Assembly (NCBI GenBank): GCA_041658185.1
Contig: JBBAAR010000008.1
Location: forward strand, 3,723 to 67,722
Origin: Elusimicrobiota bacterium
Lineage (GTDB): Bacteria; Elusimicrobiota; UBA8919
DNA: 64,000 bases
Direction of reading: 5' to 3'
Numbering within the stretch: the stretch's first letter is position 1; every line of letters begins with the position of its first letter. A model generated the notes under the pieces. That model saw only the letters and a program-made list of their open reading frames with translations, searched no databases and was not told where the DNA came from. A program made the position numbers and the translations under genes. Of the stretch, positions 22,208 to 50,157 are shown piece after piece.

Positions 22208-22250
22208 AAATTTGATTTCCTTTCTATTCCTTTGACTAATTTTATATTTT

Positions 22251-25003
<2,753 letters not shown>

Positions 25004-25079
25004 TTAACACCAGAACATAGTGCATAGAGCACAGAGTACAGAACTACGCTCTCTCAACTACGCTCTACGCTCTGCCTCT

Positions 25080-26177
25080 CTAATCCAGCCGCATAGGCAT
25101 AATTATGTAAAGATAATTCGGGTCGTCAGCGGGTCTCAAAACCCCGGGGCTTACCGGTGTAGTGAACTCAAAAATAATTTCATCGTTGGTCACCACGCGC
25201 AGCATATCAATAACATAATTGGGATTGTAAGCCACAGTGAACGGCTCGCCTTTGTAGTCGGTTTCTATTTCGTCGTTTCCCTCGCCCTTGCCCTGCTCCA
25301 TTGAATAAATTAAAATTTTACCCTTGCCGACTGAGTATTTTATTGACGAGGGCCTGAACGGCAGCACCCGGTCGGTGGCATCAAGCAAATCCTTCGTCTT
25401 TATTTTGAGAGAGCCCTTTTTCTCCTTCGGAATAACTTGTTCGTAATTCGGGAAATGCCCCTCAATAAGCCGGGAGCGCAGAATTGTCTCGCCGATTTTA
25501 AACCCTATCTGGTTTTCAAACACGCCGACTTCCGTTTCCTCAATTGATGTACCTGAAATAATTTTTAAAAGTTCTTCAATCGCTTTTGACGGAATTATAA
25601 ATGTACTTGAGATTTTTTTATCAACCGCATTTTCTTTTGAAATGTAAGCAAGCCGTTTTCCGTCGGTTGAAACCATAATTGCCTTGCCTTTTTCAATAAG
25701 AAAATATATCCCGTTTAAGACGTATCTGGTCTCATCCATTGAAATAGCAAACTTGGTTTTTGTTATCATATCTTTAAGCGTAGCCGTCGCTATTTTGAAT
25801 GTTTTTCCGCCTTCAAAATCAACGGCAACCGGGAACTCCGTCTTTGAAAGTCCTACAAGCGAATATTTTGTTTTCCCGGATTTTATAATTACCTTTTCGT
25901 TTTCGGAAACCTCTATCTCTACTTCCTGCTGAGGCAGTTTTTTGATGATATCAATTATAAGTTTGCCGGGCAGAGTAATTCCGCCTTCTTTCAATACCTG
26001 TGCTTTGATAACCGTTTTAGCGGCAACTTCTAAATCAGTCGCTGCAAGCGTTAAACTATCTTCTTTCGCATCAAAAAGCAGGTTTGACAACTGCGGCAGT
26101 GTGCTTTTTTGCGAGACAGCACCCGATACAATTCCCGTTCCTTTCAAAAGTTCGTCCTTCATACAAACAATTTTCAT
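25080..26177 (-). CDS. dnaN: DNA polymerase III beta sliding clamp
   Basis: 365 aa with three-domain clamp architecture. Immediately downstream of dnaA. Confidence 0.93.
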   Translation of the reverse strand: MKIVCMKDELLKGTGIVSGAVSQKSTLPQLSNLLFDAKEDSLTLAATDLEVAAKTVIKAQVLKEGGITLPGKLIIDIIKKLPQQEVEIEVSENEKVIIKSGKTKYSLVGLSKTEFPVAVDFEGGKTFKIATATLKDMITKTKFAISMDETRYVLNGIYFLIEKGKAIMVSTDGKRLAYISKENAVDKKISSTFIIPSKAIEELLKIISGTSIEETEVGVFENQIGFKIGETILRSRLIEGHFPNYEQVIPKEKKGSLKIKTKDLLDATDRVLPFRPSSIKYSVGKGKILIYSMEQGKGEGNDEIETDYKGEPFTVAYNPNYVIDMLRVVTNDEIIFEFTTPVSPGVLRPADDPNYLYIIMPMRLD

Positions 26178-26444
26178 TTGGTCCCCCTATCCCCTTTTTT
26201 TGGTTTCTTGTTATTATATTAAATATATAATCATAATCATCATAATAGCTGTGGATATGTTAGTTATACCGCATCCGGCACTTTTTATTTTTTTTCATAC
26301 TCGGTAAACCGCAGTAATTCCAACTTTATTAATGTTAATTATGATGTTGATAACCGTCCAATTTTATTAACACTGCCAAATTTTTTTATTTTTTCTTGAA
26401 CTTATCAACCGTTATAAAAAATTACTAACAAACTTTAATACTTT
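26178..26444. promoter_or_regulatory. Candidate oriC / dnaN-dnaA intergenic AT-rich region with DnaA-box-like sites
   Basis: 267-bp AT-rich gap containing TGTTGATAA (~26337), TTATCAACC (~26402), TTATTAACA and an ATATATAAT-rich unwinding-like stretch. Confidence 0.5.
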
Positions 26445-27803
26445 TTATTTTCCCGATTTTATTTCCTGGATTATTTTATTAACCTGTGCCGCAAAATATG
26501 CGTCTTTTGCCATCGTTTTTTCTATTTTATCAAATGAATAAAGAACTGTAGTATGGTCTCTGCCGCCGAATGCCTCGCCGATGTCGGTAGTGGATAGTTC
26601 CGTAAATTTTCTTGCCAGATACATAGCAATCTGTCTCGGATGCGCAATGGCATCCGTTCTTTTTTTGCTTTTCAAATCCTTTATGTCAAGATTGAAATTT
26701 CTTGCTATGATTTTTTGTATGCGTTCCATTGTAACCGGGAACTCCACGGATTCCTGTCTTACTATATCCTTGAAAATTTCATGCGCTCTGTCAACTGTAA
26801 TCTGGCTCCCTGTCAGTGATGCGTGCGCCACTATTTTTATAAGTGCTCCCTCAAGCGACCTTATATTTTCTTTTATCTGCGCTGCGATGAAAAGTATCAC
26901 ATCCTCAGGAACATGAATTCTTTCGTCAAAGATTTTGCTTTTTAATATGGCAATCCTTGTTTCCAAATCCGGCGGCTCAATATCCGCGACCAACCCCCAC
27001 TCAAACCTGCTTTTGAGCCGGTCCTGCAGCGTTATTATTTCTTTAGGTGCGGAGTCGGCGCACAAAACAATCTGTTTCCCGGCGTCATATAAGGAATTAA
27101 AAGTGTGATGAAACACCTCCTGTATCTGCTCGCCCCTCCCGAGGAACTGGATATCGTCAATAAGAAGTGCGTCAAGCGAACGGAATTTTTGGTGGAACTG
27201 CGGCATCCGGCCTTTCTGCATTGAATCAATCATTTCGTTGGCGAATTTTTCGCAGGTGATATATAAAATTTTTGCCGCCGGATATTTTTGTTTCATCCTC
27301 TGCCCTATTGCATGAAAAAGATGCGTTTTTCCCAAACCCACTTTTGCGTAAATAAAAAGCGGATTATACGCCTTGCCGGGATTTTCGGCGACCGCAAGCG
27401 CCGCCGCCTGTGCAAGACGATTGGAATTTCCGACGATAAATTTTTCAAAAGTGTATTTAGGATTAAACTGGTTTTCAAGAAAAACGGATTCTTCTTTTGC
27501 AACAGGTATCGGCTCGGTTATTTGTTCCGCCCGTTTTAACATCTCGTCCAAATTTTTTGTTACAGTATAATCAAGTACCATCGCGGTCCCGACTTGTCCG
27601 GAAATTTCTTTTTCTATATTTTCCTGAATATTTTCCCTGAACCAATCAATAAAAAATTTGTTCGGCACTTCAATTATGAATTTATTTTCAATAATTGAAA
27701 CTGCTTTTGCGGGTTTTATCCACAATTCAAAAGAATTTTCAGGAATTATTTTTTGAATAACTTCAAGCGTTTTTTCCCACAATTCTTGCGGAGTTTTGTT
27801 CAT
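26445..27803 (-). CDS. dnaA: Chromosomal replication initiator DnaA
   Basis: Walker A 'GLGKTHL'. AAA+ boxes. C-terminal DNA-binding 'IAHPRQIAMYLARKFTELS...IGEAFGGRDHTTVLYS'. Confidence 0.95.
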   Translation of the reverse strand: MNKTPQELWEKTLEVIQKIIPENSFELWIKPAKAVSIIENKFIIEVPNKFFIDWFRENIQENIEKEISGQVGTAMVLDYTVTKNLDEMLKRAEQITEPIPVAKEESVFLENQFNPKYTFEKFIVGNSNRLAQAAALAVAENPGKAYNPLFIYAKVGLGKTHLFHAIGQRMKQKYPAAKILYITCEKFANEMIDSMQKGRMPQFHQKFRSLDALLIDDIQFLGRGEQIQEVFHHTFNSLYDAGKQIVLCADSAPKEIITLQDRLKSRFEWGLVADIEPPDLETRIAILKSKIFDERIHVPEDVILFIAAQIKENIRSLEGALIKIVAHASLTGSQITVDRAHEIFKDIVRQESVEFPVTMERIQKIIARNFNLDIKDLKSKKRTDAIAHPRQIAMYLARKFTELSTTDIGEAFGGRDHTTVLYSFDKIEKTMAKDAYFAAQVNKIIQEIKSGK

Positions 27804-28020
27804 TATGAAGACCTATTGAAAACTTACTAACAAAGTTATGCACAAATGTTAATAACATTCCAACTTGTTTTTAATTATCTGATACTACCATATTTTATCA
27901 GGTTTTCCCATTACTTTTGCAATTATACAAAATGTTTATTAGGAAGTCAAGGAAAATATTTTTTCAAAAAATATTTTTTTTCTTGACAAATTTTTTTATT
28001 TTTATATAATTACTTTAATT

Positions 28021-28524
28021 ATGAAACAGCAAGCACTTGTTATTATCAAACCGGACGGACTGAAAAAATCTTTAACGGGAAGTATACTGTTAAAACTTTC
28101 CGAGGCGAAACTTGAAATTATCGGAGCGAAAGTTGTTAAACCGACCCGGGAACTCGTGGAAAAACATTATGCCCACATGAAAGAAAAACCGTTTTTTGAG
28201 GAAATAGTCCAGTATCTTTGCGGTGATATTCACAAATTAAAGCGGGTGCTCGTACTTTTGTATCAGGGAGAAAATGCAATTGAAAAATTAAGAAAAATAT
28301 CGGGTGCTACAAATCCCGAGGATGCCGAACCGACTACCATCCGCGGTTCTTACGGAAGAATTACCACAAAAGGCGTTTATGAAAATGTCCTGCATGTTTC
28401 CGGCGCTGACTCGGAAGCCGAGCGGGAAATAAAATTATGGTTTCAACCTTCCGAAATCGTTCACGAGATTTATCCCACCAAGGAAGTTGTAATAGAAAAA
28501 TTAAAAATTAAAGAATGGGCGTAA
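28021..28524 (+). CDS. ndk: Nucleoside diphosphate kinase-like protein
   Basis: 'LVIIKPDG', 'HYAHMKEKPFFEEIVQY', 'NVLHVSGADSEAE' parallel NDK motifs. 167 aa. Confidence 0.7.
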   Translation: MKQQALVIIKPDGLKKSLTGSILLKLSEAKLEIIGAKVVKPTRELVEKHYAHMKEKPFFEEIVQYLCGDIHKLKRVLVLLYQGENAIEKLRKISGATNPEDAEPTTIRGSYGRITTKGVYENVLHVSGADSEAEREIKLWFQPSEIVHEIYPTKEVVIEKLKIKEWA

Positions 28525-28572
28525 AAAAACCCCGGACCGCATGGTTCAGGGCTTTTTTATTTTAGCTGCAAC
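28525..28572. terminator. Bidirectional rho-independent terminator candidate between convergent ndk and the 143-aa gene
   Basis: AAAAAAACCCCGGACCGCATGGTTCAGGGCTTTTTTATTTT: an imperfect GC stem flanked by an A-tract and a T-tract. Confidence 0.5.
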
Positions 28573-29004
28573 TTATTTTTTTACCGGTTCTGCCGCTTTT
28601 GCTTTAGCTTTTGCTGCAGGTTTCGGAACTTTAACTTTTATTGAAGTTGCGATATTTTTTTCAGCTTCCATTCTGTATCTCACAGAAACTTTAGTGCCGG
28701 CAGCGAGTTCGGACAACTGAATTGCTTTATCTTCTTTTGTCAGTTTCGTCTTTGCGTCCACCGTTACGATCTGTGTTTCACCTTTTTTCTCATTTTTGAT
28801 CGTTACCTGCGAGTTCGCTATGTCGACGGCGACAACCTCACCGGTTATAGACATGGACTTCTTTTTTGCTTTGGCTGCGGGTTTTATTGTTTTGGAAGGC
28901 GCCGCTTTTACCGCCTCGGGTTTTGCCATCTGTTCCTCGGCATAAATTAAACCGATTCCTGCCGTAAAACTTAACATTACCAATAATGCCATTAAACGTT
29001 TCAT
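28573..29004 (-). CDS. Secreted Lys/Ala-rich protein
   Basis: Signal peptide. 'KPAAKAKKK' and 'KPAAKAKAKAAEPVKK' low-complexity ends flanking a small beta domain. Confidence 0.5.
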   Translation of the reverse strand: MKRLMALLVMLSFTAGIGLIYAEEQMAKPEAVKAAPSKTIKPAAKAKKKSMSITGEVVAVDIANSQVTIKNEKKGETQIVTVDAKTKLTKEDKAIQLSELAAGTKVSVRYRMEAEKNIATSIKVKVPKPAAKAKAKAAEPVKK

Positions 29005-29162
29005 TTGTACTTCCTCCTTTAAGATGAGATTTTACTAAATTTTTAGTTGATATTCATCGGATATTTTTGTCGTTCACCTCCTATTTTTCCAAGTTTGTGA
29101 ATATCATCCGTCCATCAGTAAAATCTTTTTTTTATTTTCCTCTTCCGCTGTTGCAAAAAAAC

Positions 29163-29480
29163 TTATTTGAAAAAGTTTAGGGGATAAAATTCCTCGCAAA
29201 CGGGATGTAGAATAAAATGACCGATAAAACAATTAGGAAAAAAACAATTTAACAGGTTTCCGGAAACGAAGTTGTTATTCGTAAAGGTATTGAAATTTCC
29301 GGATATGCTATGCAAATCAAAAGTTATTTCGTAGAGACCCGGCAACGAATAATTGGATGTATCGTAGCGTTGCTGTATCTCCTGGTCGGGAATTACAGGA
29401 TTATCCTTCTCGATTAAAAACAATGCACCGGCGGAAACAACAAAGATAAACAAACTACTCAGTATGCTGAATAATCCCAA
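29163..29480 (-). CDS. Hypothetical small membrane protein
   Basis: 105 aa ORF with an N-terminal TM helix. No motif. Confidence 0.35.
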   Translation of the reverse strand: MGLFSILSSLFIFVVSAGALFLIEKDNPVIPDQEIQQRYDTSNYSLPGLYEITFDLHSISGNFNTFTNNNFVSGNLLNCFFPNCFIGHFILHPVCEEFYPLNFFK

Positions 29481-29634
29481 TGTTTTGAATATTATAGTAT
29501 ATTAATAAAATTTTGTCAAGCACTTTTCTGCCTGATCAAAAAATATACCACAAGGTCGTAATAAACCTGAAAATTCTGATATTTCGGTAAAATAGCCGGT
29601 TCATTGCCGTCCGGCAAATATTATTTATTTCTTG

Positions 29635-29781
29635 CCGAGGATTCTGAACACTTTTGTACCGCATTCAGGACAAACGCCCTGCAGCGCCCTTCTTCCGCCC
29701 TTCATCTCAATTTCTTTTGCGTCCTTAATCTCCACCTGCTTCTTGCACTTCATACATCTGCCTTCCGCCATTTTGTCAGCC
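29635..29781 (-). CDS. Small zinc-ribbon protein (48 aa; CxxC...CxxC), not in the ORF track
   Basis: Reverse-complement translation: MAEGRCMKCKKQVEIKDAKEIEMKGGRRALQGVCPECGTKVFRILGKK. Resembles small Zn-ribbon (DUF5679-like) proteins. Confidence 0.5.
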
Positions 29782-29805
29782 CTCCTTTTTTGATTTCGGT
29801 TTTAA

Positions 29806-30660
29806 CTATTTTTTTGATTTATGCCGCAAGATGTTAACGATTCTGTTCAGGTCGTTAAGCGATGCGCACGAGACGATAATTTTTCCTTTTCCCCCGCGGT
29901 ATTTTATTTCAACTTTTGTGCCTAAAATCCGCTGGAGTTCCTCCTCAACCGCAATAATGTTGCTGTCTTTTTTTGATTTTGATTTTTTTGAATTCTTAGA
30001 AATTTTTTCAACATCCCTGACGGTGAGTTGCTGGTTTATTATCCTTTCCAAAAGCAGCCGTTGCTTCATCGGGTCGTCAATTGATGCGATTGCGCGCGCG
30101 TGTCCTTCGGTTATTTTACCCTCTGAAATCGCATCCTGTATGTTCCGCGGAAGAGAAAGCAGCCGGGTTATATTTGCGACTGTTGAACGGGATTTCCCCA
30201 GCGTTTTTGCGAGGTCTTCCTGAGTTAAGTTGAACTCTATCATCAGCCGTTTGTAACCCTTCGCCTCTTCAATCGGATTCAAATCGCTGCGTTGTAAATT
30301 TTCAATTAAAGATATTACGAAACATTCTTTTTCCGAAAGCGGTTTTATTATTGCGGGGATTTCGGAAAGCCCGGCGAGCATTGATGCCCGCCACCTGCGT
30401 TCTCCCATAACGAGTTCGTAAGTGCCGTTTTCGTTTGACGGCCGCACCGTTATCGGTTGCGCAAGCCCGTGTTCCAAAATTGAATCAGCGAGAGTTTTTA
30501 ACTCGGCCTCATCAAATTTTTCTCTTGACTGATATTTATTCGGCTTGATTTTGTTGACAGATATTTTTACAGTTCCTTCTGCGTTGATTATAGGAGTTAA
30601 AAGGGCGTTTCCTATTTCCGGTATAAGTGCTTCCAATCCTTTCCCAAGTGCTTTTCTCAT
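29806..30660 (-). CDS. parB: Chromosome partitioning protein ParB
   Basis: ParB box 'GERRWRA', HTH 'LTQEDLAKTLGKSRSTVAN'. 284 aa. Confidence 0.92.
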   Translation of the reverse strand: MRKALGKGLEALIPEIGNALLTPIINAEGTVKISVNKIKPNKYQSREKFDEAELKTLADSILEHGLAQPITVRPSNENGTYELVMGERRWRASMLAGLSEIPAIIKPLSEKECFVISLIENLQRSDLNPIEEAKGYKRLMIEFNLTQEDLAKTLGKSRSTVANITRLLSLPRNIQDAISEGKITEGHARAIASIDDPMKQRLLLERIINQQLTVRDVEKISKNSKKSKSKKDSNIIAVEEELQRILGTKVEIKYRGGKGKIIVSCASLNDLNRIVNILRHKSKK

Positions 30661-30732
30661 AAATTTCCTCCGTCTGAAAAGTAATACATTTGTAGTAATT
30701 CGTCGTCGGTAGATAATTCTAAAAAATAGATT

Positions 30733-30984
30733 TTATTGTCTATGAAATAAAACATTTGTAGTAATTTTTAATCCACGGGATACCCGCCGCTTTTTCCCTA
30801 TTCTAAATTTTATCATTCCCGATTCCCGTAATTTTTTCAGATGCGAAGTTACAGTCCGTGTGGAAAGTCCGAGATATTTTGCAATCTCCCTTACCGTCGG
30901 CGGGATTTTGCGGTTTTCAAGCGACTTGCGGACAAAATTAAAAATCCGTTTATCCGTTTTTTTTAGCAATATCTTTTTTCTCAT
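30733..30984 (-). CDS. Stand-alone LexA-N-terminal-like winged-helix DNA-binding protein between parA and parB
   Basis: 83 aa. 'IPPTVREIAKYLGLSTRTVTSHLKKLRESGMI' parallels the LexA DNA-binding domain. No S24 peptidase domain. Overlaps the parA 3' end by 35 nt. Confidence 0.55.
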   Translation of the reverse strand: MRKKILLKKTDKRIFNFVRKSLENRKIPPTVREIAKYLGLSTRTVTSHLKKLRESGMIKFRIGKKRRVSRGLKITTNVLFHRQ

Positions 30985-31744
30985 TTTCTCTGCTCGTAAT
31001 CTCTTTTGCCAAATTCATATATGCCTCGGCCCCGCGGGAATGTTTGTCGTATAAAATAACCGGCTTGCCGAAGCCCGGTGCCTCTGCCAGCCGAACATTT
31101 CTCGGAATTATCGTCTTATACACTTTGTCGCCGAAATATTTTTTTATTTCCGTAATCACCTGCCCGGAAAGATTTATTCTCGCATCGTACATAGTCAGCA
31201 AAACTCCTTCAACATAGAGATTTATATTTAAGTTTTTTTTCAAGGCGTCAATTAGTTTGAGAAGTTGCCCCAGTCCTTCTAATGCGTAATACTCACATTG
31301 TATGGGAATAATTACAGAGTGGGCAGCAGTCAGAGCATTTACGGTCAGCAAACCCAAAGACGGCGGGCAATCAATTATGATGTAATCATAGACCTTTTCA
31401 AATTTCGCCAGTGCGGTTTTCAGCCGTGTTTCACGGGCAAGCATATTTACAAGTTCAATTTCGGCGCCCACTAAATCCAGTCCGGACGGTACAATTTCGC
31501 ACCATTCAATTTCCGTCGGAAGAATAGTATCCTCAAGCAGTTTATCATCAATCAAAACATTGTAAATACTTGCCGAGACCTCATCTTTTTTAATTCCGAA
31601 TCCGCTGGTGGAATTCGCCTGCGGATCCATATCAATAAGAAGCGTTTCGTAGGAAAGCAGTGCTAAAGATGCCGATAAATTTATAGCGGTTGTTGTCTTC
31701 CCCACCCCGCCTTTTTGATTTGCAATAACGATAATTTTACTCAT
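30950..31744 (-). CDS. parA: Chromosome partitioning ATPase ParA/Soj
   Basis: Deviant Walker A 'NQKGGVGKTTTAINL'. 264 aa. Confidence 0.93.
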   Translation of the reverse strand: MSKIIVIANQKGGVGKTTTAINLSASLALLSYETLLIDMDPQANSTSGFGIKKDEVSASIYNVLIDDKLLEDTILPTEIEWCEIVPSGLDLVGAEIELVNMLARETRLKTALAKFEKVYDYIIIDCPPSLGLLTVNALTAAHSVIIPIQCEYYALEGLGQLLKLIDALKKNLNINLYVEGVLLTMYDARINLSGQVITEIKKYFGDKVYKTIIPRNVRLAEAPGFGKPVILYDKHSRGAEAYMNLAKEITSRENEKKDIAKKNG

Positions 31745-33329: not shown

Positions 33330-33345
33330 TGTTTCACGTGAAACA
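33330..33345. promoter_or_regulatory. 16-bp perfect palindrome TGTTTCACGTGAAACA (copy 1)
   Basis: Exact palindrome with a CACGTG core. ~80 bp upstream of the 167-aa gene start and just downstream of the rimO stop. Confidence 0.7.
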
Positions 33346-34685: not shown

Positions 34686-36512
34686 TCATTGTTTCACGTG
34701 AAACATTTTAAGAGCCGGCTTCGCTTCGCCGGTTTTATCAAAAAGGGCAAAGTCCGTCCACATTTTCTCCGTGTACCATTCCGGGCTCCAGTAGAAAATA
34801 CCCGCTATGTTTTTGTTTCTTGCGCATCCGTCAATAAAATCCGAAATCCACCGTTTTTGTCCGTCAACGGTCAACGGATAACCGACGACCGGCTTGTTCC
34901 ACGCGGCGAATTGTCCTTCAATTTTTCCGGAAGAAGGGTAAGCAAACTCGCAAATAATTACCGGTTTTTTAATCTCCGAAACCAGCAATTCCACAAATTT
35001 TTCCAAGTCCTTAAATGTGTTATGCGGGCTTAAGCCGGAAGAGGGAAAATAGGATAAACCGAGTTCATCAATCTGCACTCCCGCCGTTCTCATTGTTTTA
35101 TAAAAATTTCCACAGAATTCCGGATTCCACCATTGGGTAAGATGCAGTATAAATTTCGCCTGCGGGTTAACCTTTTTTATTCCTTCCTGCGCTGCTTTGA
35201 TGAGTTCCGCCTCGTTGTTCCAGATATTTTTTTTCATCCAGTTGATATTAAAACGCACGCCCCAATCCTCGGCGAACTCTCCGCATATACCGAAGTCAAT
35301 TTCATTTCCTATTTCATATGTGTCAATTTTTATACCTGCCTGTTCAAAAGCCGTTGCGGTATTTTCAGAGTATTTTTTTACTTCTTTGATTTTTTCGCCG
35401 AAAGATAAATTTTTCCATTTTTCCGGGACAGGTTGCTTTACATAATCAGCCCAAGTATCGCTTAAAAAAACAACAAGGTAGGGCTTTAAGCCAGCCCGCA
35501 CGGCCTCTTTTGCAATTTTAATGGAATAATCCAGTCCACTATGCCCGTTTTTATTTGTCCATAACCTTATTCTGAACCAATTAAACCCGTTTTCAGAGAG
35601 AATTTGAAATATATTTTTTGTTTTTCCGTTAATTTTCCAATTTATGCCCTGCTCCGACATATCTAACGAATAATTCGCATCTGCGCCGATTTTGAACTCC
35701 CGTTCCGAATCACCCCAGATAGCGGAAGCCCATTCCGGATGGTCAATAAACGGGTTGCGGTTTCCCTGAATTTGAAATATCGCTTCATTTCTGTCGTTTT
35801 CCTTTTGACTGACAGGGTCGCTTAAATGCCATTTTAGAAGCGTTTTTATTGCCCAGTCGTTAAAATTCCCGCCGTTTTCCGTTACCATCTCGCTTTTTGA
35901 ACAATTAAGCGGGTCCTCGCCCGTCATATATCTTACGACAAAGTAAAAATATCCTCTCGCAAAATCGCCCTTAAATTCATCCGACGGCTCAAATACGTCG
36001 CCCTCAAAACCAAGTCCTTCCCGCGATTTTCCTACTTTTGAAATGCCATACTGCTGATAACTTTTTCCGACCTCGCCCAATGGTTTAACCCCTTTTTGTC
36101 CGTTTGTATGGGCGTCCGCCAAAATAACATTAAAGAGGTCGGAATGCGCGGGCGTATCTTTCCCGCCGCCCCACCAATCTTTAGGCCAGGAATGTTCGCG
36201 GGTTAAAAAACCACCGACCTCGCCGGTTTTTCCGGATTGAACGGACTCAAAAGAGTCAAAGTTATATCCCGAATACATACACCACGGTTTGCCTTCCGGC
36301 GTTGCGTCGGTTTTTTCAAAATATTTCCAAAGTTCCGAGTAATCCGGGACGGAATGGTCTTTTATTATATTATGCAACGATACCCTTAATTCATTCTCGA
36401 TTTTTCCTTTTGCGGAGTCATAGTATCCTTCCGGCTCTTCTGAAAACAGAGAACAACAGGAAAAAACTAAAATGGCCGCAATAATTATATTCTTTCTTTT
36501 TTTCCGTAGCAT
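34686..36512 (-). CDS. Secreted fusion protein: Endonuclease I (EndA/Vvn family) N-terminal domain + glycoside hydrolase family 53 (endo-1,4-beta-galactanase-like) C-terminal domain
   Basis: N-terminus: signal peptide, then 'GFLTREHSWPKDWWGG...HSDLFNVILADAHTNGQKG' (Endonuclease_1 NREH/DLHHL-like motifs). C-terminus: 'FNWFRIRLW', 'VVFLSDTWADYVKQP', 'YEIGNEIDF' (GH53 HYSDTWAD and catalytic-Glu GNE motifs). 608 aa. Confidence 0.7.
   Translation of the reverse strand: MLRKKRKNIIIAAILVFSCCSLFSEEPEGYYDSAKGKIENELRVSLHNIIKDHSVPDYSELWKYFEKTDATPEGKPWCMYSGYNFDSFESVQSGKTGEVGGFLTREHSWPKDWWGGGKDTPAHSDLFNVILADAHTNGQKGVKPLGEVGKSYQQYGISKVGKSREGLGFEGDVFEPSDEFKGDFARGYFYFVVRYMTGEDPLNCSKSEMVTENGGNFNDWAIKTLLKWHLSDPVSQKENDRNEAIFQIQGNRNPFIDHPEWASAIWGDSEREFKIGADANYSLDMSEQGINWKINGKTKNIFQILSENGFNWFRIRLWTNKNGHSGLDYSIKIAKEAVRAGLKPYLVVFLSDTWADYVKQPVPEKWKNLSFGEKIKEVKKYSENTATAFEQAGIKIDTYEIGNEIDFGICGEFAEDWGVRFNINWMKKNIWNNEAELIKAAQEGIKKVNPQAKFILHLTQWWNPEFCGNFYKTMRTAGVQIDELGLSYFPSSGLSPHNTFKDLEKFVELLVSEIKKPVIICEFAYPSSGKIEGQFAAWNKPVVGYPLTVDGQKRWISDFIDGCARNKNIAGIFYWSPEWYTEKMWTDFALFDKTGEAKPALKMFHVKQ
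34690..34705. promoter_or_regulatory. 16-bp palindrome TGTTTCACGTGAAACA (copy 2)
   Basis: Overlaps the last codons (MFHVKQ*) of the nuclease-GH53 gene and lies ~65 bp upstream of the rimO start. Confidence 0.7.
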
Positions 36513-36526
36513 ATTATTATATTAAC

Positions 36527-36768
36527 CTTATTATTTCTCGCTGAGCGAGCAAGAAATTTGTAATCATATCGCCGAGCGAGGGAGTTGGTGAGTCGGGTTT
36601 CTCACAGGTCGGCTTACTCTTTCAGCCGACCGGGAGAGAGCACTGCATCAAGCAGAGACAGCGTTCCGACGAGACAATTCCCGTGCGACCGAAGCCGACA
36701 GGGCGGTCGGATGAGCGACCAAAGGGAGTCCCTTTAGGGGTGTTTCCGACAAATTTACTTGCGAGCGA
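36527..36768 (+). repeat. MITE-like repeat element, copy C, with the central segment replaced or expanded by a ~185-bp GC-rich structured insert
   Basis: Left arm TTTCTCGCTGAGCGAGCAAGAAATTTG and right arm AAATTTACTTGCGAGCGA match the termini of copies A and D. The interior (36561-36745) is ~60% GC, versus ~36% for the genome. Confidence 0.6.
36561..36745. ncRNA. Candidate structured ncRNA (unknown class) inside repeat copy C
   Basis: Multiple stems: GTCGGCT-N9-AGCCGAC, CGGGA...TCCCG enclosing CTGC-AUCAA-GCAG, CCGAC-AGGGCG-GTCGG, AAAGGGAGTCCCTTT. Sits in the 5' leader region of the nuclease-GH53 gene (minus strand). Confidence 0.35.
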
Positions 36769-36769
36769 T

Positions 36770-36785
36770 TGTTTCACGTGAAACA
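36770..36785. promoter_or_regulatory. 16-bp palindrome (copy 3, extended to the 20-bp ATTGTTTCACGTGAAACAAT)
   Basis: Perfect 20-bp palindrome at the 3' end of the DUF2723 gene and ~260 bp upstream of the nuclease-GH53 start. Confidence 0.7.
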
Positions 36786-36786
36786 A

Positions 36787-38529
36787 TTATCTTTCATACT
36801 CCGATTTCCGGAGAAACTCCATCTCCGCTTCTTTTTTCAAACCCGCCTGCGAAAGAATAACTCCGGCATTGACGGATGCGTCTGTATAATACGAAATCAC
36901 AGTTTTTTCATAGTAATCAAGTTGGTTTTTAGGTTTTCTAAAAGGATAGAGTTCAAAAAGGAAACTGCCGCTGCTGACCTTTTCCGCTTTTTGAATTGCA
37001 GTCGCATTTTTAATCACCCTGCAGCCCAGGCCCCGCGGGATAACATAATTTTCAAGCCCCGGATGCACGCCTTCGGTAAAAACGGGCTCTTTGTCCGATT
37101 TTTTAAGAAGCGCATCAACAGTAGAAACAGAATTTTCATTGTAAAAAATTTCGGGGTATTTCTGCTCGTATTCGGCAATCCGCCAGGGCATAAATGAACT
37201 CAGAATTACTTTTACATCCCGCCGCATTTTTTCAACATTTTGAAAATAATTAACGGTAAAAATAGGTATGTCGGCGGTCATTAAAAGATAGGAATTTTCA
37301 GGAATTGAACGGAGCAGGTTTTTACCGTAATCGTGGGCAAGAAAATTGTTCCGCTTGTCTAAATGTTGAAAATTTTGGTAAAACAGAAATCCCGGCAAAA
37401 TGAGAAAAAGCGGGGATAAAATACGGGAAAAAAGTACCTGTCCCTTTATTATATCCATAAGTCCGCCAATCCCCATACCTATTATTAAGGCAATAAAAAC
37501 AGAGGACAAAACGCAAGCCGGTTCAAGTATCACAAGTGAAAATTCATTGTTCGGCAGTCGGGAGAGTAATATAAAAAACGGTCCGGTGAACAGGAAAAAA
37601 AAGAGCATTGTTTTTCCGAACCCGCCTTGAAGGTCTCTAAAACAGAAAAAAACACCGCTCGCCGTCAAAATAATGCCGAGCCGTCCGAATTGGTTCCTAA
37701 ACAATTGCCAAAACATTTTTGCAGAATCTTTAAGCGTATTTCCGTGCGCCGCGCCGGAATGCCTGCTTGAAAGTTTGACCGTGCCGTAGTCGGTCCTCAT
37801 CAAAACATTCGCAAAACTGCTTATTGTCTGCGGATTGCCCCAGTTGTTTAACGGCTGTTGCTTCGCCCTTATAGGAAGGAAAATATAAACGGAAAAGCCG
37901 AGAAGAAAAAACAGCGAGAGGGAGAGCAATTTTACCTTTTTACGCTTTAATAAATAATAAATTATTCCTGGGAGTAAAAGCACAAGCGTATGGTGGTTTC
38001 CGAGACCCAAACCGAATAAGAAAGCGGCGAGGAGCGTGTAGTTGCCGGGCTTGTTCGGCTTAGTAGCAAGTAACAAATAAACTATCAAAATGGCGAAAAG
38101 GGCGTTCATTGAGTATATTTCCGCCAAAATGGATTGCCGCCAAAAAGCAGTGGAAAACGCCAGCGTTAACGCAGATATAAAGGCAGTGAAGGAAAGCGAA
38201 AAAAAGTGAAAAAAAGTGTTTGACGAACTGCTTTCATTCAATCTCGCCCACTTCCGTTCACTTCTTTTCACTATTAAATAGACCATCATAACGGTTAATG
38301 AAGATGTAAAAGCGGAAAAAATGTTCAAACGGTAGCCGATGTTTCCGAAAGGAATTAGAATCGTCCATATTTTGCCGAGAATCACATAAACGGGATACCC
38401 CGGCGGATGTGCTATTCCCAGAGTAAAAGCAGAAGCGGTTAAATCACCTGCGTCCCTGAAAGGCGAAACGGAGGGGTAAAGAGTATAAAGATATGTTGAA
38501 AAACTGATTAAAAACAGAAAAATAGCCAT
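36787..38529 (-). CDS. DUF2723-family (TMEM260-like) GT-C-fold membrane glycosyltransferase-like protein
   Basis: 580 aa. N-terminal 'YPSVSPFRDAGDLTASAFTLGIAHPPGYPVYVILGKIWTILIPFGNIGYRLN' is ~70% identical to the same segment of 61204..63084. Multi-TM. C-terminal soluble region. Confidence 0.65.
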   Translation of the reverse strand: MAIFLFLISFSTYLYTLYPSVSPFRDAGDLTASAFTLGIAHPPGYPVYVILGKIWTILIPFGNIGYRLNIFSAFTSSLTVMMVYLIVKRSERKWARLNESSSSNTFFHFFSLSFTAFISALTLAFSTAFWRQSILAEIYSMNALFAILIVYLLLATKPNKPGNYTLLAAFLFGLGLGNHHTLVLLLPGIIYYLLKRKKVKLLSLSLFFLLGFSVYIFLPIRAKQQPLNNWGNPQTISSFANVLMRTDYGTVKLSSRHSGAAHGNTLKDSAKMFWQLFRNQFGRLGIILTASGVFFCFRDLQGGFGKTMLFFFLFTGPFFILLSRLPNNEFSLVILEPACVLSSVFIALIIGMGIGGLMDIIKGQVLFSRILSPLFLILPGFLFYQNFQHLDKRNNFLAHDYGKNLLRSIPENSYLLMTADIPIFTVNYFQNVEKMRRDVKVILSSFMPWRIAEYEQKYPEIFYNENSVSTVDALLKKSDKEPVFTEGVHPGLENYVIPRGLGCRVIKNATAIQKAEKVSSGSFLFELYPFRKPKNQLDYYEKTVISYYTDASVNAGVILSQAGLKKEAEMEFLRKSEYER

Positions 38530-38545
38530 TGTTTCACGTGAAACA
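38530..38545. promoter_or_regulatory. 16-bp palindrome TGTTTCACGTGAAACA (copy 4)
   Basis: Abuts the start codon of the DUF2723 gene (minus strand), in the divergent intergenic region with the TPR gene. Confidence 0.7.
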
Positions 38546-38907
38546 TTAAATGATTTGGTATAATTGGAGACCGTTGAAAAACCTTGTTTTTGTAGGCACG
38601 GTCTATGACCGTGCTAATATGCCATAGACGGAGTACGAACAAAGTTCGTGTCTACAATAAATATACCAAACACTTTTTCACCGGTATTATTATACAAAAA
38701 ATTTAGTTTAATTCAAGTCCTGTTGGATTAAGATTCTCTATCTAATTGGGGCAAGCCCGCCAAAAACAAAAAATCGTTCTGCATTTTTTTTGTTGTATTT
38801 TTTCAAAAATTTTGTATAATTTTTTTAGATGGAAAAAGACTTTTTCGTTAGAAAAACCGGAAAAACAGGGGAAACCAGAACCGTCCCCGTATTGCGTTGA
38901 GAAATAT

Positions 38908-41118
38908 ATGAAAAAACGTTTAGAGAATACCGTCCCGAATCACCTCTGGAAACAATGGATTGCAATTGGGATAATAGTTTTGGCAACAACAGTTGTCTAT
39001 TATAACTCACTAAAAGCACCGTTTATATTTGATGATATTGGAAAAATTGTTGAAAATCCCGATATAAACGATTTAAGAAATCTCAAAACAAAACTCATTT
39101 ACCCTTATAGTAAGAATAAAATATGGGAGCGAAACGATCCATCCCGCCCAGTTACATATTTGACTTTTACACTAAATTATTATTTTGGGAAATTAAATAC
39201 TTTCGGTTATCATCTATTTAATCTGCTCATACATATATTTAATGCGATTCTGCTGTTCTTTTTGACAAAAAAAATGATATTGTATCTCTGTAAGAAAGAT
39301 TCTGTTGTTTTCTCTTTTTTTGTGGCATTGTTTTTTGCCGTTCATCCAATCAACACAGCCGCAGTAACGTATATTTTTAGTCGTTCCGATGTTTTAGCTA
39401 CTTTTTTTTATATTTCATCTTTAATGTTATTTATAAAAACACGAGAAGTGACTTCGGACTTTGGACATCGGACACTTTTATACATTTTATCATTAGTGTG
39501 TTTTATATTAGCCCTTTTCTCAAAGCAAATAGCAGTAACTTTGCCTGCGATAGTGCTGGCTTTTGATTATATTTTCCTGAACGATTTCAGTGCAAAAAAA
39601 ACTCTTGAAAAAAAATATTATCACATACCGTTCTGGATTCTACTGATTGCGTATTTATTATTCCGATATTTTTATTTTGGCGGGCTGGGAGATGTAGAAG
39701 CAGAGACAAAAGATACTTGGAATAGATATTCCTATTTAATTATTCAGCCATACATAATTTTAAAGTATTTAAAACTGTTGCTTATTCCTATCGGACTTTG
39801 CATAGACCATCTAATCAGCCCTGTAAAAACATTGGAATTAAAAACAATAATATCTTTTTTGTCTCTTGCGGTAATATTCCGGTTAACTTACAGGACTTAT
39901 AAAAAGAAAACAGATATTTCAAAGATAATTCTATTTTGTGTGTTGTGGTTTTTTATAATTTTATCTCCGACATCCAGTTTTTTTCCTACCACCAGTGCAT
40001 TAGTTGAGAACCGGCTGTATATTTCAGGTATTGGATTTTATTTTTTTATTACTTTTTTGTATTTTAAAATATTTAAGATAGATTTTGCACTTGCGCAGGA
40101 GTTGAATTTAACCCGGAATTGGATTTTATTTAGTGTTATAATGCTTCATATTTCCCTGCTTGGTTATGGGACAATAAAACGAAATCAACTTTATCAAAAT
40201 CCTATATTACTATGGCAGGATGTTATTTCAAAATATCCTAATAATCCAAGAGCATATACCAATCTCGGACTTTTATTGGAAAAGTTAAACAGATTTACAG
40301 AAGCGGAGAAAGAATACAGGGAGGCGATAAGGATAAATCCGAATGCTGAAAAAGCGCACAACAATCTCGGCGGTTTATTGTGTAATTCAAAAAGATTTAA
40401 AGAAGCAGAGAGAGAATTCAGAGAGGCAATAAGAATAAATCCAAATAATGCAGGAGTGCACTACAATTTCGGACTTTTATTGTATACTTCAAAGAGATTT
40501 AAAGAGGCAGAGAGAGAATTCAGGGCGGCAATAAGAATAAATCCAAATTATTTAGAGGCGCACAACAATCTCGGCGGTTTATTGTATAATTCAAAAAGAT
40601 TTGAAGAAGCAGAGAGAGAATTCAGGGCGGCAATAAGAATAAATCCAAATTATTCAGAGGCGCACTACAATTTCGGACTTTTATTGTATACTTCAAAGAG
40701 ATTTAAAGAGGCAGAGAGAGAATTCAGGGCGGCAATAAGAATAAATCCAAATTATTTAGAGGCGCACAACAATCTCGGCGGTTTATTGTATAATTCAAAA
40801 AGATTTAAAGAAGCAGAGAGAGAATTCAGGGCGGCAATAAGAATAAATCCAAATTATTCAGAGGCGCACAACAATCTCGGAATTTTATTGGTAAGGTTAA
40901 ACAAATTGGAAGAAGCAGAAAAAGAATTCAGGGAAGCGATAAGGATAATGCCGAATAATACAGAAGCACACTACAATTTAGGCAATTTGTATTATGAACT
41001 GAAAGAATATAACAAGGCACTTCGAAAATTTGAAACTGCTTTAAGATTGTCACCAGACAATCAATTTATTCAAGATAAAATCAAGTTGTTACGTCAATTA
41101 ACGATGGAGAGGAAGTAA
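38908..41118 (+). CDS. TMTC/DUF1736-like membrane GT-C protein with a C-terminal TPR array
   Basis: 'PFIFDDIGKIVENPDI' is the FxxDD motif of the PMT/TMTC-like family. ~11 TM. C-terminal ~10 TPR units. Start taken at the internal ATG (38908); the ORF track begins at 38746. Confidence 0.7.
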   Translation: MKKRLENTVPNHLWKQWIAIGIIVLATTVVYYNSLKAPFIFDDIGKIVENPDINDLRNLKTKLIYPYSKNKIWERNDPSRPVTYLTFTLNYYFGKLNTFGYHLFNLLIHIFNAILLFFLTKKMILYLCKKDSVVFSFFVALFFAVHPINTAAVTYIFSRSDVLATFFYISSLMLFIKTREVTSDFGHRTLLYILSLVCFILALFSKQIAVTLPAIVLAFDYIFLNDFSAKKTLEKKYYHIPFWILLIAYLLFRYFYFGGLGDVEAETKDTWNRYSYLIIQPYIILKYLKLLLIPIGLCIDHLISPVKTLELKTIISFLSLAVIFRLTYRTYKKKTDISKIILFCVLWFFIILSPTSSFFPTTSALVENRLYISGIGFYFFITFLYFKIFKIDFALAQELNLTRNWILFSVIMLHISLLGYGTIKRNQLYQNPILLWQDVISKYPNNPRAYTNLGLLLEKLNRFTEAEKEYREAIRINPNAEKAHNNLGGLLCNSKRFKEAEREFREAIRINPNNAGVHYNFGLLLYTSKRFKEAEREFRAAIRINPNYLEAHNNLGGLLYNSKRFEEAEREFRAAIRINPNYSEAHYNFGLLLYTSKRFKEAEREFRAAIRINPNYLEAHNNLGGLLYNSKRFKEAEREFRAAIRINPNYSEAHNNLGILLVRLNKLEEAEKEFREAIRIMPNNTEAHYNLGNLYYELKEYNKALRKFETALRLSPDNQFIQDKIKLLRQLTMERK
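40260..40960 (+). repeat. Near-identical tandem 102-bp (34-codon) TPR-encoding DNA repeats
   Basis: ~7 units alternating two subtypes ('YLEAHNNLGGLLYNSKRFKEAEREFRAAIRINPN' and 'YSEAHYNFGLLLYTSKRFKEAEREFRAAIRINPN') with >90% nucleotide identity. Confidence 0.85.
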
Positions 41119-44894: not shown

Positions 44895-46742
44895 ATGAAT
44901 AAAAAAATATCAATTTATCTGATGCTTTTGATTTTTGTTTCCGTCGGAGTTTATTCCAATTCTGTTTTTAATAAATTTGCGTTTGACGATGTCCACATCG
45001 TTGAAAATAATCCGCTGATAAAAAATACGTTCCGCGGTGCAGGGTTGCTTTTCAAGAGCGAATACGGGGCGCAAACGGACTTCGCCGGAGTAAAAATTTA
45101 CAGACCTCTGGTTATGGTTTCGTATCTTTTAACAAATATTTTTTCCGGTAATAAACCTATCTTTCATCATTTAGGGAACGTAATTTTACAGACGATAAAT
45201 GTCCTGCTCGTTTTTTTTCTTTGCAAACAGTTGCTTGCATTTTTTTACAAAAAAGAAGGTTTTGAAACAGAGGCATTTTTATGCGCTTTGTTTTTTGCGG
45301 TTCATCCTGTTCACGCGGAGGTTGTAGCCGGCATTGTCGGGCGGTCGGAAATTTTAGCGGGGTTTTTCTGTTTTGTTTCGTTCCTGCTTTACATTAAAAA
45401 CAATCTTTTTTGGTCCATGGTTGTTTTTTTTCTCGCCCTTTTATCAAAAGAAAACTCCGTCGCATTGTTAGGTTTAATTTTTTTTTACGAGGTTCTTTTC
45501 AATAAAAAATTGTCAAAATCAATAATCGGTTTTTTCGGGATTTTTGTTTTCTGGCTTATTGTCAAATATTTTGCCATCGGCGGCATTTTTACCGGTAGCG
45601 AGAGATATTTCAAGGAGGGCTTGGCCGTTAGGGTTTTTACGATGAGCAAAGCGACGTTATTCTACATAAAACTTATGTTTATCCCGTATCCGTTGAACCC
45701 CGATTGGGGCTTGAGCGATATCATTTCAATTTCACAAACATTTTTCGAGCCGTTTGTCATTTTAAGTTTTTTAACCCTTGCCGCCGTGTTTTTTGCCGCA
45801 TACAAAATGATAAAAATAAATCCGGTTTTTGCATTTTCAATTTTATGGTTTTTCGCCTTTCTTTTTCCGGTGTCCAACATCATTCCAATAGGCGATTTTA
45901 TCGCCGAGAGATTTTTATATATTCCTTCATTCGGTTTTTGTCTGTTTGCCGGCGATTTGGTCCATCGTAATAAAAAACTGATAAAAATTGCACCGCTTAT
46001 TTTGGTAATTTTTTCTTTTATCACAGTGAAACAAAATACCGTCTGGAAAAACAATATGTCGCTATGGACGTACACCGCTCAAAAATTTCCGAAAAATTGG
46101 CGTGCGTTCTGGGAATTGGGCAAATGTTACCGGACTGAGAAAAATGCCGGCGATACGATAAAGTATTTCAAAAAATCAATAGCATTAAGAGAGACGGATT
46201 TAGTTCTGTATGATTTAGCGGTTGAGTTGAGAAAAAAAGGCGATTGTCCTTCTGCAATTGAGTCGCTCAACATTCTTATCGGCATTGACGGGAAAAGTGC
46301 AAAGGCGTATCTTGAAAGAGCAAAATGTTACGGTCATACAGGCAGTTATAAAGATGCCGTCTCGGATTTTCAGACCGCCGCACTTTTGTCGCCGAAAGAC
46401 GACAACATTTTTTACGAGGCCGGCAGGTTTTATATTTTAAGAGGCGATTTGTCGTCGGCAAAAAATAATTTTAAGAAAGCGGCGGAACTTAACGGCAAAA
46501 ACGCGAATGCTCTCGTGGGCGTCGGCGTATGTTTTTATCAAATGAAAAATTTTAAGATTGCAAAAAACTATTTTTCCGCTGCCCTGAGAATTGATTCTCA
46601 AAATACGGAAGCCATGTATAATCTTATAGTCGTAAATGTATCGCTTGGGAATAAGGAAGAGGCGAAATCACTTTTAGAAAAATACAAAAATCTTAACCCT
46701 GATGACCCAAAAATCAGCCGGATTGAGGCGGGTATTTTATGA
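44895..46742 (+). CDS. TMTC/DUF1736-like membrane GT-C protein with a C-terminal TPR array (paralog of 38908..41118)
   Basis: 'FAFDDVHIVENNPLI' FxxDD motif. Multi-TM. C-terminal TPRs. 615 aa. Confidence 0.7.
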   Translation: MNKKISIYLMLLIFVSVGVYSNSVFNKFAFDDVHIVENNPLIKNTFRGAGLLFKSEYGAQTDFAGVKIYRPLVMVSYLLTNIFSGNKPIFHHLGNVILQTINVLLVFFLCKQLLAFFYKKEGFETEAFLCALFFAVHPVHAEVVAGIVGRSEILAGFFCFVSFLLYIKNNLFWSMVVFFLALLSKENSVALLGLIFFYEVLFNKKLSKSIIGFFGIFVFWLIVKYFAIGGIFTGSERYFKEGLAVRVFTMSKATLFYIKLMFIPYPLNPDWGLSDIISISQTFFEPFVILSFLTLAAVFFAAYKMIKINPVFAFSILWFFAFLFPVSNIIPIGDFIAERFLYIPSFGFCLFAGDLVHRNKKLIKIAPLILVIFSFITVKQNTVWKNNMSLWTYTAQKFPKNWRAFWELGKCYRTEKNAGDTIKYFKKSIALRETDLVLYDLAVELRKKGDCPSAIESLNILIGIDGKSAKAYLERAKCYGHTGSYKDAVSDFQTAALLSPKDDNIFYEAGRFYILRGDLSSAKNNFKKAAELNGKNANALVGVGVCFYQMKNFKIAKNYFSAALRIDSQNTEAMYNLIVVNVSLGNKEEAKSLLEKYKNLNPDDPKISRIEAGIL

Positions 46743-48602: not shown

Positions 48603-50138
48603 TTGAGAGAGAAAAAAATGGAAAAAAGAACTTTTTTGGCAATAATTCTGTCATTGGTAATTCTTTTCGGTTGGAATTTGCTTTTCAAACCTAAACCCCG
48701 CTTCCCGGTAGAAGCGCCCGCTGCAGCGAATACTTGTGAGGTATCGCCGGCAATATCTCCCGGGCAAAAAAACATCGCACCGTCAATCCCGTCCCAAAAA
48801 TCTGCCGCAAAATTTCAGATAGAAACGGACAAGGTGATATATGTTTTAAGCACGGACGGAGCGTCAATTGTAAATTGTTTTCTCAAAGAGGAGCGGCTGA
48901 AAGAAAAAACTACGGTTGAACTCGTATTAAACGGTAAATTATTAAACGATAAGGATACCGGCATCTGGTCAAACATTTGGGCGAAAAATCAGTCGTGCCA
49001 GGCAACTTTTGTCCGTTCAACGGGCGATTTTGATATAGAGAAAACTTTTTATTTTAGTAACAATTCACATATAGTTGATGTAAAATATACCGTCTCAAAT
49101 AAAACCAAATCCCCGAAAAGTTTTGAGGGTTTAACGCTGTCAATCGGCCCCGGGCTCGGTACCGATAAAAAAGAATTAAAGGAAAATATGAGATTATTAA
49201 GAGCAATTTCATATTCGCAAAAAAAAGTTGAAAAATTAAATGCCGGTGTCTATCAATTCCCGTCAAAGTGGGCAGGCATTGACAATAGATATTTCCTTTC
49301 AGTTTTTTTGAGGACGAATAATGACTTCAAAAATATAAAAGTTGAAAAAGCGGAAAAGTTGCCGTTAATGGAAATTTCCACCGGTAAAATTGATTTTTTG
49401 CCGTCTGAAAAAAAGAGTTTTTCAACGATTGCCTATATAGGTCCGAAGGGTTATACGCATCTTAAGGGGATAAAAGTTGACGGATTAAAACCGCAACTTG
49501 AAAAGGCGGTTGATTTCGGATTTTTCGGCGACCTCGGAGAATTAGCGCTTTCCGCGTTGAATTATATCTATAAATACACCCACAATTACGGTTGGGCGAT
49601 TTTTATAATCTCGGTAATTCTTAATATCATATTTTATCCGCTTTCTAAAAAGTCATTCACATCTGCACAGAAAATGAAATTGGTTCAGGGAGATGTAAAG
49701 GCACTTCAAATAAAATACAAAAGCGACCCGAAAAAAATGAATACTGAAACATGGGCGCTTTACAAAGCAAAGGGTGTCAATCCGTTCAGCGGGTGTCTTC
49801 CGATGCTGGTCCAGTTGCCTATTTTCTGGGCGCTTTTTACGATGTTGAGAAACGCCTACGAATTGCGCGGTGCATATTTTATGTTCTGGATAACGGATTT
49901 ATCGGCGAAAGACCCTTATTATATTTTACCTATTTTAATGGGCGGCGGAATGTTTTTGCAGCAGTGGATGTCCACGAACATTGCTGACCCGACGCAGAAG
50001 CAGATGATGATAATGATGCCCATAATTTTTACCGTGATGTTTCTCGGATTTCCTTCGGGTCTGGTTATCTACTGGCTTACAAACAGCATTGTAACGATTT
50101 TGGAGCAGTGGCTTATTTTTAAGAAAGCAAAAGCATGA
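48603..50138 (+). CDS. yidC: Membrane protein insertase YidC
   Basis: Periplasmic N-domain plus C-terminal 5-TM core ('PYYILPILMGGGMFLQQWMS', 'GLVIYWLTNSI'). 511 aa. Confidence 0.92.
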   Translation: MREKKMEKRTFLAIILSLVILFGWNLLFKPKPRFPVEAPAAANTCEVSPAISPGQKNIAPSIPSQKSAAKFQIETDKVIYVLSTDGASIVNCFLKEERLKEKTTVELVLNGKLLNDKDTGIWSNIWAKNQSCQATFVRSTGDFDIEKTFYFSNNSHIVDVKYTVSNKTKSPKSFEGLTLSIGPGLGTDKKELKENMRLLRAISYSQKKVEKLNAGVYQFPSKWAGIDNRYFLSVFLRTNNDFKNIKVEKAEKLPLMEISTGKIDFLPSEKKSFSTIAYIGPKGYTHLKGIKVDGLKPQLEKAVDFGFFGDLGELALSALNYIYKYTHNYGWAIFIISVILNIIFYPLSKKSFTSAQKMKLVQGDVKALQIKYKSDPKKMNTETWALYKAKGVNPFSGCLPMLVQLPIFWALFTMLRNAYELRGAYFMFWITDLSAKDPYYILPILMGGGMFLQQWMSTNIADPTQKQMMIMMPIIFTVMFLGFPSGLVIYWLTNSIVTILEQWLIFKKAKA

Positions 50139-50157
50139 TTCTGGAGGTCTATTTATT

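Follow-up and report, generated by a model that had tools for sequence, protein, structure and literature searches.

A rare but conserved fusion of an Endonuclease I-family domain with a GH53 galactanase-like domain, spanning at least three phyla

The stretch of DNA analyzed here (the window; 64 kb of contig JBBAAR010000008.1) is the chromosomal origin region of an Elusimicrobiota metagenome-assembled genome (MAG). On its minus strand (34686..36512), it carries a gene whose product joins an Endonuclease_1 nuclease domain to a glycoside hydrolase family 53 (GH53) domain behind a predicted export signal. This fusion is a genuine, intact single-chain protein and not a merging artifact, and it brings two well-known enzyme families together in a new way; the architecture is rare but conserved and spans at least three phyla. 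We consider it probable (about 0.6) that the protein is an exported two-headed hydrolase, which would carry out the colocalized breakdown of extracellular nucleic acid and galactan-type polysaccharide for nutrients.

The open reading frame (ORF) is complete and runs for 1,827 nucleotides (nt) without interruption or frameshift, encoding 608 amino acids (aa) plus a stop codon in the order signal peptide, Endonuclease_1, linker, and GH53. The protein is identical to an NCBI entry named [quoted passage not shown] and an independently assembled Logan contig (L001) carries the identical ORF. In addition, 13 two-domain homologs that are 46 to 75% identical to the window protein come from other samples (independent metagenomes). 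Because of the identical independent contig and these homologs, we regard the single reading frame as real. A preliminary description made from the sequence alone had placed an Endonuclease_1 domain at residues ~30 to 250 and a GH53 domain in the C-terminal ~350 residues, and Pfam recovers both at full length, at aa 40 to 260 (PF04231) and aa 276 to 604 (PF07745). The four strings it quoted are likewise all found in the protein (LTREHSWPKDWWGG, aa 103 to 116; HSDLFNVILADAHTNGQKG, aa 123 to 141; VVFLSDTWADYV, aa 347 to 358; and YEIGNEIDF, aa 399 to 407). The domain scan and the catalytic residues identify the C-terminal half as GH53 with both glutamates in place, and alignment indicates that both active sites are intact (E106/H107/N137 and E404/E522), with the catalytic residues of both halves kept in every family member covering them.

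An AlphaFold model of the fusion, built from a mixed alignment of 149 sequences, reached a predicted local distance difference test (pLDDT) score of 94.2 and a predicted TM (pTM) score of 0.76. It replaced an earlier run on the 14 fusion sequences alone, in which the nuclease core had a pLDDT of <50. In the later model, pLDDT is >90 for the nuclease domain and falls to ~83 at the linker only. The top 13 Foldseek matches against the PDB are all GH53 galactanases (E values of 6e-24 to 3e-19 and target TM scores of 0.72 to 0.87), and the next fold family, GH10, follows only at 1e-9, 10 orders of magnitude behind.

The nuclease half (35733..36395, minus strand) matches positions 3 to 235 of the 235-position PF04231 profile (E = 1.8e-49; 169.1 bits versus a cutoff of 25), and a profile search matched Vvn (1oup) and endonuclease I (2pu3, 2g7e, and 2vnd). 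Residues R105-E106-H107 and N137 are invariant in the family alignment. E106 and H107 of the REH motif (36192..36197, minus strand; invariant in 14 family members) are the predicted metal ligand and general-base histidine, and from motif comparison and what is known of Vvn we take them to correspond to Vvn Glu79 and His80. N137 in DAHTNGQKG (36102..36104, minus strand) is predicted to bind Mg2+ from the finger helix, and because DLFNVILADAHTNGQKG aligns without gaps to Vvn DLHNLTPAIGEVNGDRSN, it would hold the position of the metal-binding Asn. The AlphaFold model places E106-H107 at the end of strand 102 to 107 and N137 in helix 134 to 140, which comes after strand 129 to 133. The model is thus consistent with a beta-beta-alpha-metal finger, in which a His ends the first strand and an Asn starts the helix. 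The NCBIfam EndA equivalog model gave only 25 bits versus its 372-bit cutoff, and only two Cys residues (C77 and C204) are largely conserved in this half, which together place the protein within the Endonuclease I family but outside the EndA/Vvn equivalog. Its nearest single-domain relatives (~45% identical; from Bacteroidota, Marinimicrobia, and others) carry type IX secretion system (T9SS) sorting, dockerin, fn3, or FlgD-Ig modules, and the T9SS sorting, dockerin, or fn3 tails suggest that these relatives are secreted or surface enzymes.

The GH53 half (34701..35687, minus strand), a (beta/alpha)8 domain, matches positions 3 to 340 of the 340-position PF07745 profile (E = 1.2e-58; 199.1 bits versus a cutoff of 24) and GH53 entries in the PDB with E values of 1e-33 to 1e-18. 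In a HMMER alignment to solved galactanases, N403-E404 aligns with N164-E165 of the B. licheniformis enzyme (BlGal). E404 (35301..35303, minus strand), part of the GNE motif where beta-4 ends, is the predicted acid/base; it aligns to Glu165 of both BlGal and the I. aggregans enzyme (IaGal) and is invariant. The predicted nucleophile is E522 (34947..34949, minus strand), which lies in IICEFAYP at the end of beta-7, aligns to BlGal Glu263 (Ala in the E263A mutant 2gft), and is present in 13 of the 13 members reaching this position. In the model, E404 is near strand 398 to 401 and E522 is in strand 518 to 523, the locations of the clan GH-A pair. The roles of the catalytic and subsite residues have been described for IaGal and BlGal (PMC8447715). 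The −2 subsite Trp of IaGal (Trp115, the second Trp of SDWWADP) has its counterpart in W354 of SDTWADY, which is also invariant. The half lacks the extended eighth loop that carries the −3 subsite Trp in BlGal/IaGal-type enzymes (YWSPEWY-TEKMW versus IaGal ...WIPYPGAGWKTGEGNPW), but this leaves the assignment to GH53 standing because fungal GH53 enzymes share the short loop. The GH53 half falls within a large subclade of ~360-aa single-domain proteins (50 to 55% identical) that has no characterized member, and an operon for a sugar ABC transporter immediately precedes the gene for its nearest single-domain relative (P0015). The most probable substrate would be beta-1,4-galactan or related galacto-oligomers.

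The predicted N-terminal export signal (~aa 1 to 24, MLRKKRKNIIIAAILVFSCCSLFS; 36441..36512, minus strand) consists of a basic n-region followed by a 12-residue hydrophobic core, with a 10-mer hydropathy of 3.16. A PROSITE-type lipobox pattern matches at Cys19, and the segment may therefore be a lipoprotein signal. All full-length fusion homologs have a hydrophobic N terminus ahead of a conserved P-x-G-Y-Y mature start, and the fusion is predicted to leave the cytoplasm and to be either periplasmic or secreted. The interdomain linker (aa 261 to 275, ~15 residues; 35688..35732, minus strand) is the sole stretch between the halves that varies in length in the alignment.

Searched exhaustively with HMMER, 1.84 billion cluster representatives at 50% identity yielded 12,600 relatives, and a single representative in the 1.84 billion (P0005) matched both halves, in addition to one truncated fragment (P0045). 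This agrees with the earlier view that the architecture is not a standard one. Large multi-stretch matches were considered as independent nuclease-GH53 fusions and rejected, as they contain tandem nuclease domains instead. The family carries the labels Elusimicrobiota, “Candidatus Dependentiae” (P0011), and Chthoniobacterales/Verrucomicrobiota (the P0006 cluster), and a scan of GTDB genomes found at least one related genome. Homologs carry the JGI pipeline machine label “arabinogalactan endo-1,4-beta-galactosidase/endonuclease I”; the architecture is thus visible in databases, though unstudied, and our literature searches for the nuclease/GH53 domain pair found no description of it.

Within the fusion family, pairwise identities of the two halves are correlated (r = 0.66), as expected if both evolve as one unit, and mean pairwise identity is 60% for the nuclease half and 49% for the GH53 half. 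In distance trees, the fusion nuclease halves form one clade that includes only three other sequences, all fragments on short contigs, and the fusion GH53 halves are interspersed among single-domain proteins. Either repeated fission or weak resolution could account for the latter pattern: fusion monophyly was recovered in 0 of 50 bootstraps of the neighbor-joining tree of the GH53 half, whose 329 columns are too weak to separate the two. One MAG contig (CAZJQD010000001.1, positions 3756 to 6190; here L006) carries the two modules as separate ORFs in different frames, with a 67-nt overlap and in the same order as in the fusion. The nuclease there has an extra C-terminal tail of ~85 aa that finishes with a hydrophobic anchor segment plus RKLRA (…MLWLPFPILLAICTYLTWRKLRA), and the GH53 protein has its own signal peptide with the lipobox LLFAVGC. 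Because each separate gene has its own anchor or signal sequence, we regard the split as genuine and not as an error. Both modules are closest to those of the fused protein P0013 (73% identical for the nuclease and 65% for GH53, versus 52% and 48% to the window protein), which places the split inside the fusion clade and is most simply explained by secondary fission. In L006 the pairing is kept despite the lost covalent link, with both products predicted to be envelope associated, and the split pair therefore provides Rosetta-stone evidence for selection on the pairing itself.

Together, these features suggest how the protein might work. Export of the fusion from the cytoplasm would be driven by a Sec-type signal peptide, which may be of the lipoprotein kind (Cys19). 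The N-terminal half would act as a nonspecific, Mg2+-dependent His-Me finger nuclease of the Endonuclease I family, with His107 as the general base and Asn137 and Glu106 holding the metal, and the C-terminal half would act as a retaining GH53 (beta/alpha)8 glycanase, with Glu404 as the acid/base and Glu522 as the nucleophile. The two catalytic domains, separated by a short linker and probably evolving as one unit, would depolymerize mixed extracellular polymers at or near the cell surface, and phosphate or nucleotides and sugars could then be harvested. We favor nutrient scavenging because secreted T9SS and dockerin nucleases are among the relatives of the one half, and a GH53 relative of the other is encoded next to a sugar ABC transporter. 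In Flavobacterium johnsoniae, phosphate depletion induces PF04231 nucleases (PMC8115612).

Several observations weigh against this reading as a whole. The GH53 half is only ~23 to 28% identical to characterized GH53 enzymes; its subclade has an insertion of ~12 residues after beta-4 (FGICGEF...W..RF..WM) with a conserved Cys (GICGE), and YWSPEW where most GH53 enzymes have YWEPAW. Because of the insertion and the altered motif, it may not share the specificity of canonical galactanases. The disulfide cysteines of the Vvn/EndA type are absent from the nuclease half. We found no genes for galactan, galactose, or nucleoside utilization or uptake within the 64-kb window or adjacent to the fusion on six other contigs. 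Finally, the 75%-identical ortholog in a relative with a conserved neighborhood (L002) is broken by a 138-nt insertion (L002 positions 3847 to 3984) with in-frame stops in otherwise ~90%-identical DNA, which shows that at least one close relative can do without the gene.

Among the alternatives, the one that survives best, already proposed in the preliminary description, is that the fusion is a matrix-degrading enzyme directed against a biofilm or host matrix of extracellular DNA and polysaccharide, serving dispersal, invasion, or escape from DNA-glycan traps. The presence of two depolymerases in a single secreted polypeptide, joined by a short and rigid linker, would suit this role, and one fusion gene (P0007) directly follows a pilin-like/Amuc_1102 cluster. 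Fusion members also occur in Dependentiae, which are host associated. However, genes for biofilm, matrix, extracellular polymeric substances, or dispersal are found in none of the seven genomic contexts of the fusion, the closest relatives of each half indicate nutrient acquisition, and beta-1,4-galactan is not, to our knowledge, a described major bacterial biofilm polymer. We regard a matrix role as a possible minority alternative, compatible with the data and not mutually exclusive with nutrient acquisition.

It seems unlikely that the GH53 half serves chiefly for targeting or binding, holding the nuclease on a surface that contains galactan, and that its glycosidase activity is secondary or lost. 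That idea draws on the usual fusion of Endonuclease_1 to noncatalytic adhesion or anchoring modules and on the better conservation of the nuclease half (60% versus 49%), but it sits poorly with the retention, in all covering members, of both glutamates, of the −2 subsite Trp, and of the Asn that precedes the acid/base, and with the sugar uptake contexts of single-domain members of the same GH53 subclade. Equally improbable is a periplasmic housekeeping role, in which an EndA-like barrier or recycling nuclease would be paired with a glycanase for turnover of glycans in the cell's own envelope. Both E. coli EndA and Vvn are indeed located in the periplasm (PMC5714182), the window protein has a possible lipobox, and a TMEM260-like glycosyltransferase gene adjoins the fusion gene in a neighborhood kept in L002. 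On the other hand, the nuclease is closest to extracellular T9SS and dockerin nucleases and falls far below the EndA cutoff, and the neighborhood is not conserved beyond these two Elusimicrobiota contigs. Slightly more doubtful still is a cooperative mode in which both active sites would act on DNA-galactan complexes or sugar-decorated nucleic acid, the glycan being stripped or opened before the nuclease cuts; if true, the protein would be a dedicated “glyco-nucleic-acid” depolymerase and not two independent enzymes sharing a chain. That two adjacent genes were joined artificially by a sequencing or assembly frameshift, an idea to which the separate overlapping ORFs of L006 and the broken copy in L002 might lend something, is effectively refuted by the uninterrupted ORF with the same sequence in an independent assembly, by 13 fused homologs from different samples and phyla with a conserved junction, and by the separate anchor and signal sequences of the L006 genes.

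An exported two-headed hydrolase for nutrient acquisition thus remains our preferred reading, and it bears on several broader points. Engineered mixtures of DNase and glycosidase are used to dissolve biofilms, and the fusion may be a natural precedent for such cocktails; in the literature that we searched, no natural single chain combining a nuclease with a polysaccharide hydrolase was described. The conserved fusion and its split version suggest that for some uncultured bacteria (Elusimicrobiota, Dependentiae, and Chthoniobacterales), it is advantageous to degrade nucleic acid and a galactan-type glycan in one location. If both activities prove real, the protein would be a compact matrix-degrading enzyme, an entry point into its GH53 subclade, and a clue to how poorly known phyla feed. 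If the glycosidase instead proves specific for a glycan other than galactan, the apparent single specificity of GH53 would be broken.

The fusion gene lies between two parts of the origin region, with gyrA, gyrB, dnaN, dnaA, ndk, parB, and parA on one side (19601 to 31744) and yidC, jag, mnmE, and mnmG on the other (48603 to 60907). After parA, the order is a hydrolase gene, a gene of unknown function, a RimO/MiaB-like gene, the fusion gene, a TMEM260-like glycosyltransferase gene, and tetratricopeptide repeat (TPR) genes. This neighborhood is conserved only in L002, the 75%-identical relative. Elsewhere, the homolog P0005 (51% identical) follows dnaA-dnaN-ROK (L003, 4372 to 9845), P0007 is separated from the pilin-like/Amuc_1102 cluster by a 5-bp gap (L004), two fusion genes lie among sulfatases and GH1 (L005 and L086), and one lies among unrelated genes (L087). 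Taken together, the genomic contexts speak neither for nor against any specific pathway. Three of the seven contexts (the window, L002, and L003) are origin proximal, which may be a coincidence. A scan for promoters and terminators gave counts equal to the shuffled expectation.

The preliminary description had also linked the fusion to a nearby palindromic motif and to a structured GC-rich RNA, a link that does not hold up. The palindrome is the consensus of parS (TGTTTCACGTGAAACA), a chromosome-partitioning site, with four perfect 16-bp copies in the window (33330 to 33345, 34690 to 34705, 36770 to 36785, and 38530 to 38545) versus 0.06 expected by chance. The copies share an 18-bp core (ATTGTTTCACGTGAAACA), and each is at a gene boundary, all within 5.2 kb and ~2.6 kb from parA/parB. 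One of them (34690..34705) overlaps the last six codons (MFHVKQ) and the stop codon of the fusion ORF, and the C-terminal tail that it encodes is not conserved in homologs. The parS pair flanking the TMEM260-like gene is kept in L002, with a spacing of 1,760 bp in both. The spacings in the window (1,360, 2,080, and 1,760 bp; repeat starts at 33327, 34687, 36767, and 38527) are all multiples of 80, and an artifact was suspected and rejected; the pattern is probably a coincidence, because the L002 spacings (1,760, 1,271, and 3,392 bp) differ in pattern. The GC-rich spacer upstream of the fusion gene (36513 to 36786; 274 bp, 50% GC) had no Rfam match (whole window at the gathering threshold; 30.5 to 39 kb at E ≤ 1), so a known structured RNA beside the gene is unsupported. 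Its folding is about equal on both strands (z scores of −3.6 and −3.7), it contains a duplicated motif of ~25 nt that occurs once in L002, and it is mostly lineage specific, with 64 nt at the same position in L002. The parS sites and the spacer thus have no evident functional link to the enzyme.

Other features of these loci were noted along the way. The insertion in the L002 ortholog forms one long imperfect hairpin (−48 kcal/mol; z score of −5.9) with inverted-repeat ends and resembles a miniature inverted-repeat transposable element; it had no Rfam match and no second copy in the fetched loci. L002 also has a serpin gene flanked by parS sites (2284 to 3504) between its TMEM260-like and fusion genes, where the window has only the GC-rich spacer. 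The window contains two TMEM260-like (protein O-mannosyltransferase-like) membrane glycosyltransferase genes (36787 to 38529 and 61204 to 63084), the second fused to TPR repeats, and large TPR proteins are encoded at 38746 to 41118 and 44895 to 46742. A type II restriction-modification pair (14306 to 16324) consists of an N6_N4 DNA methylase and an MvaI/BcnI-family endonuclease, and a Fic-domain gene (12062 to 13054) and RtcB (17798 to 19192) lie near it.

Compared with known systems, the GH53 half has the same fold and catalytic Glu pair as the galactanases of Aspergillus aculeatus (1FHL), Humicola insolens (1HJQ), Bacillus licheniformis (1R8L and 1UR0), I. aggregans (7OSK), and Bacteroides thetaiotaomicron (6GP5), with which it also shares the motifs SD.WAD, HL, SY(F/Y)P, GQ, and YW.P.W. 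In its short eighth loop it resembles the fungal enzymes, and it differs from characterized GH53 enzymes in having a Cys ahead of the nucleophile. The nuclease half shares a His-Me finger, an (E)H general base, a metal-binding Asn, and predicted export with Vvn, E. coli EndA, Vibrio Dns, and Bacillus Bsn, and the motifs FEP..D..KG..AR..Y.Y and QGNRNPF with Vvn and endonuclease I. Its relation to Vvn and EndA is nevertheless distant (profile E of ~1e-10), and its spacer from the catalytic His to the GG motif is much shorter. It is closer to the secreted T9SS-type nucleases of Bacteroidota (~45% identical). Secreted Bacteroidota nucleases of the Endonuclease I family include F. johnsoniae Fjoh_4721 and Fjoh_4723.

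The partner is what sets the fusion apart. A survey of His-Me finger proteins lists only the Ig-like surface modules fn3, LTD, and Big_2 as partners of Endonuclease_1 (PMC5714182), and elsewhere the domain is joined to Ig-like, LTD, T9SS, or dockerin modules, whereas the partner here is a catalytic glycosidase. A parallel is provided by dockerin-bearing Endonuclease_1 proteins (P0126, P0128, P0158, and P0192), whose nuclease domains are 44 to 48% identical to the window nuclease. The co-occurrence of dockerin (PF00404) and Endonuclease_1 suggests that nucleases have been recruited into cellulosome-like complexes, where they would likewise be placed physically beside polysaccharide-degrading enzymes. 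In those proteins, however, the association would be noncovalent, through a scaffoldin as the dockerin implies, whereas in the fusion it is covalent.

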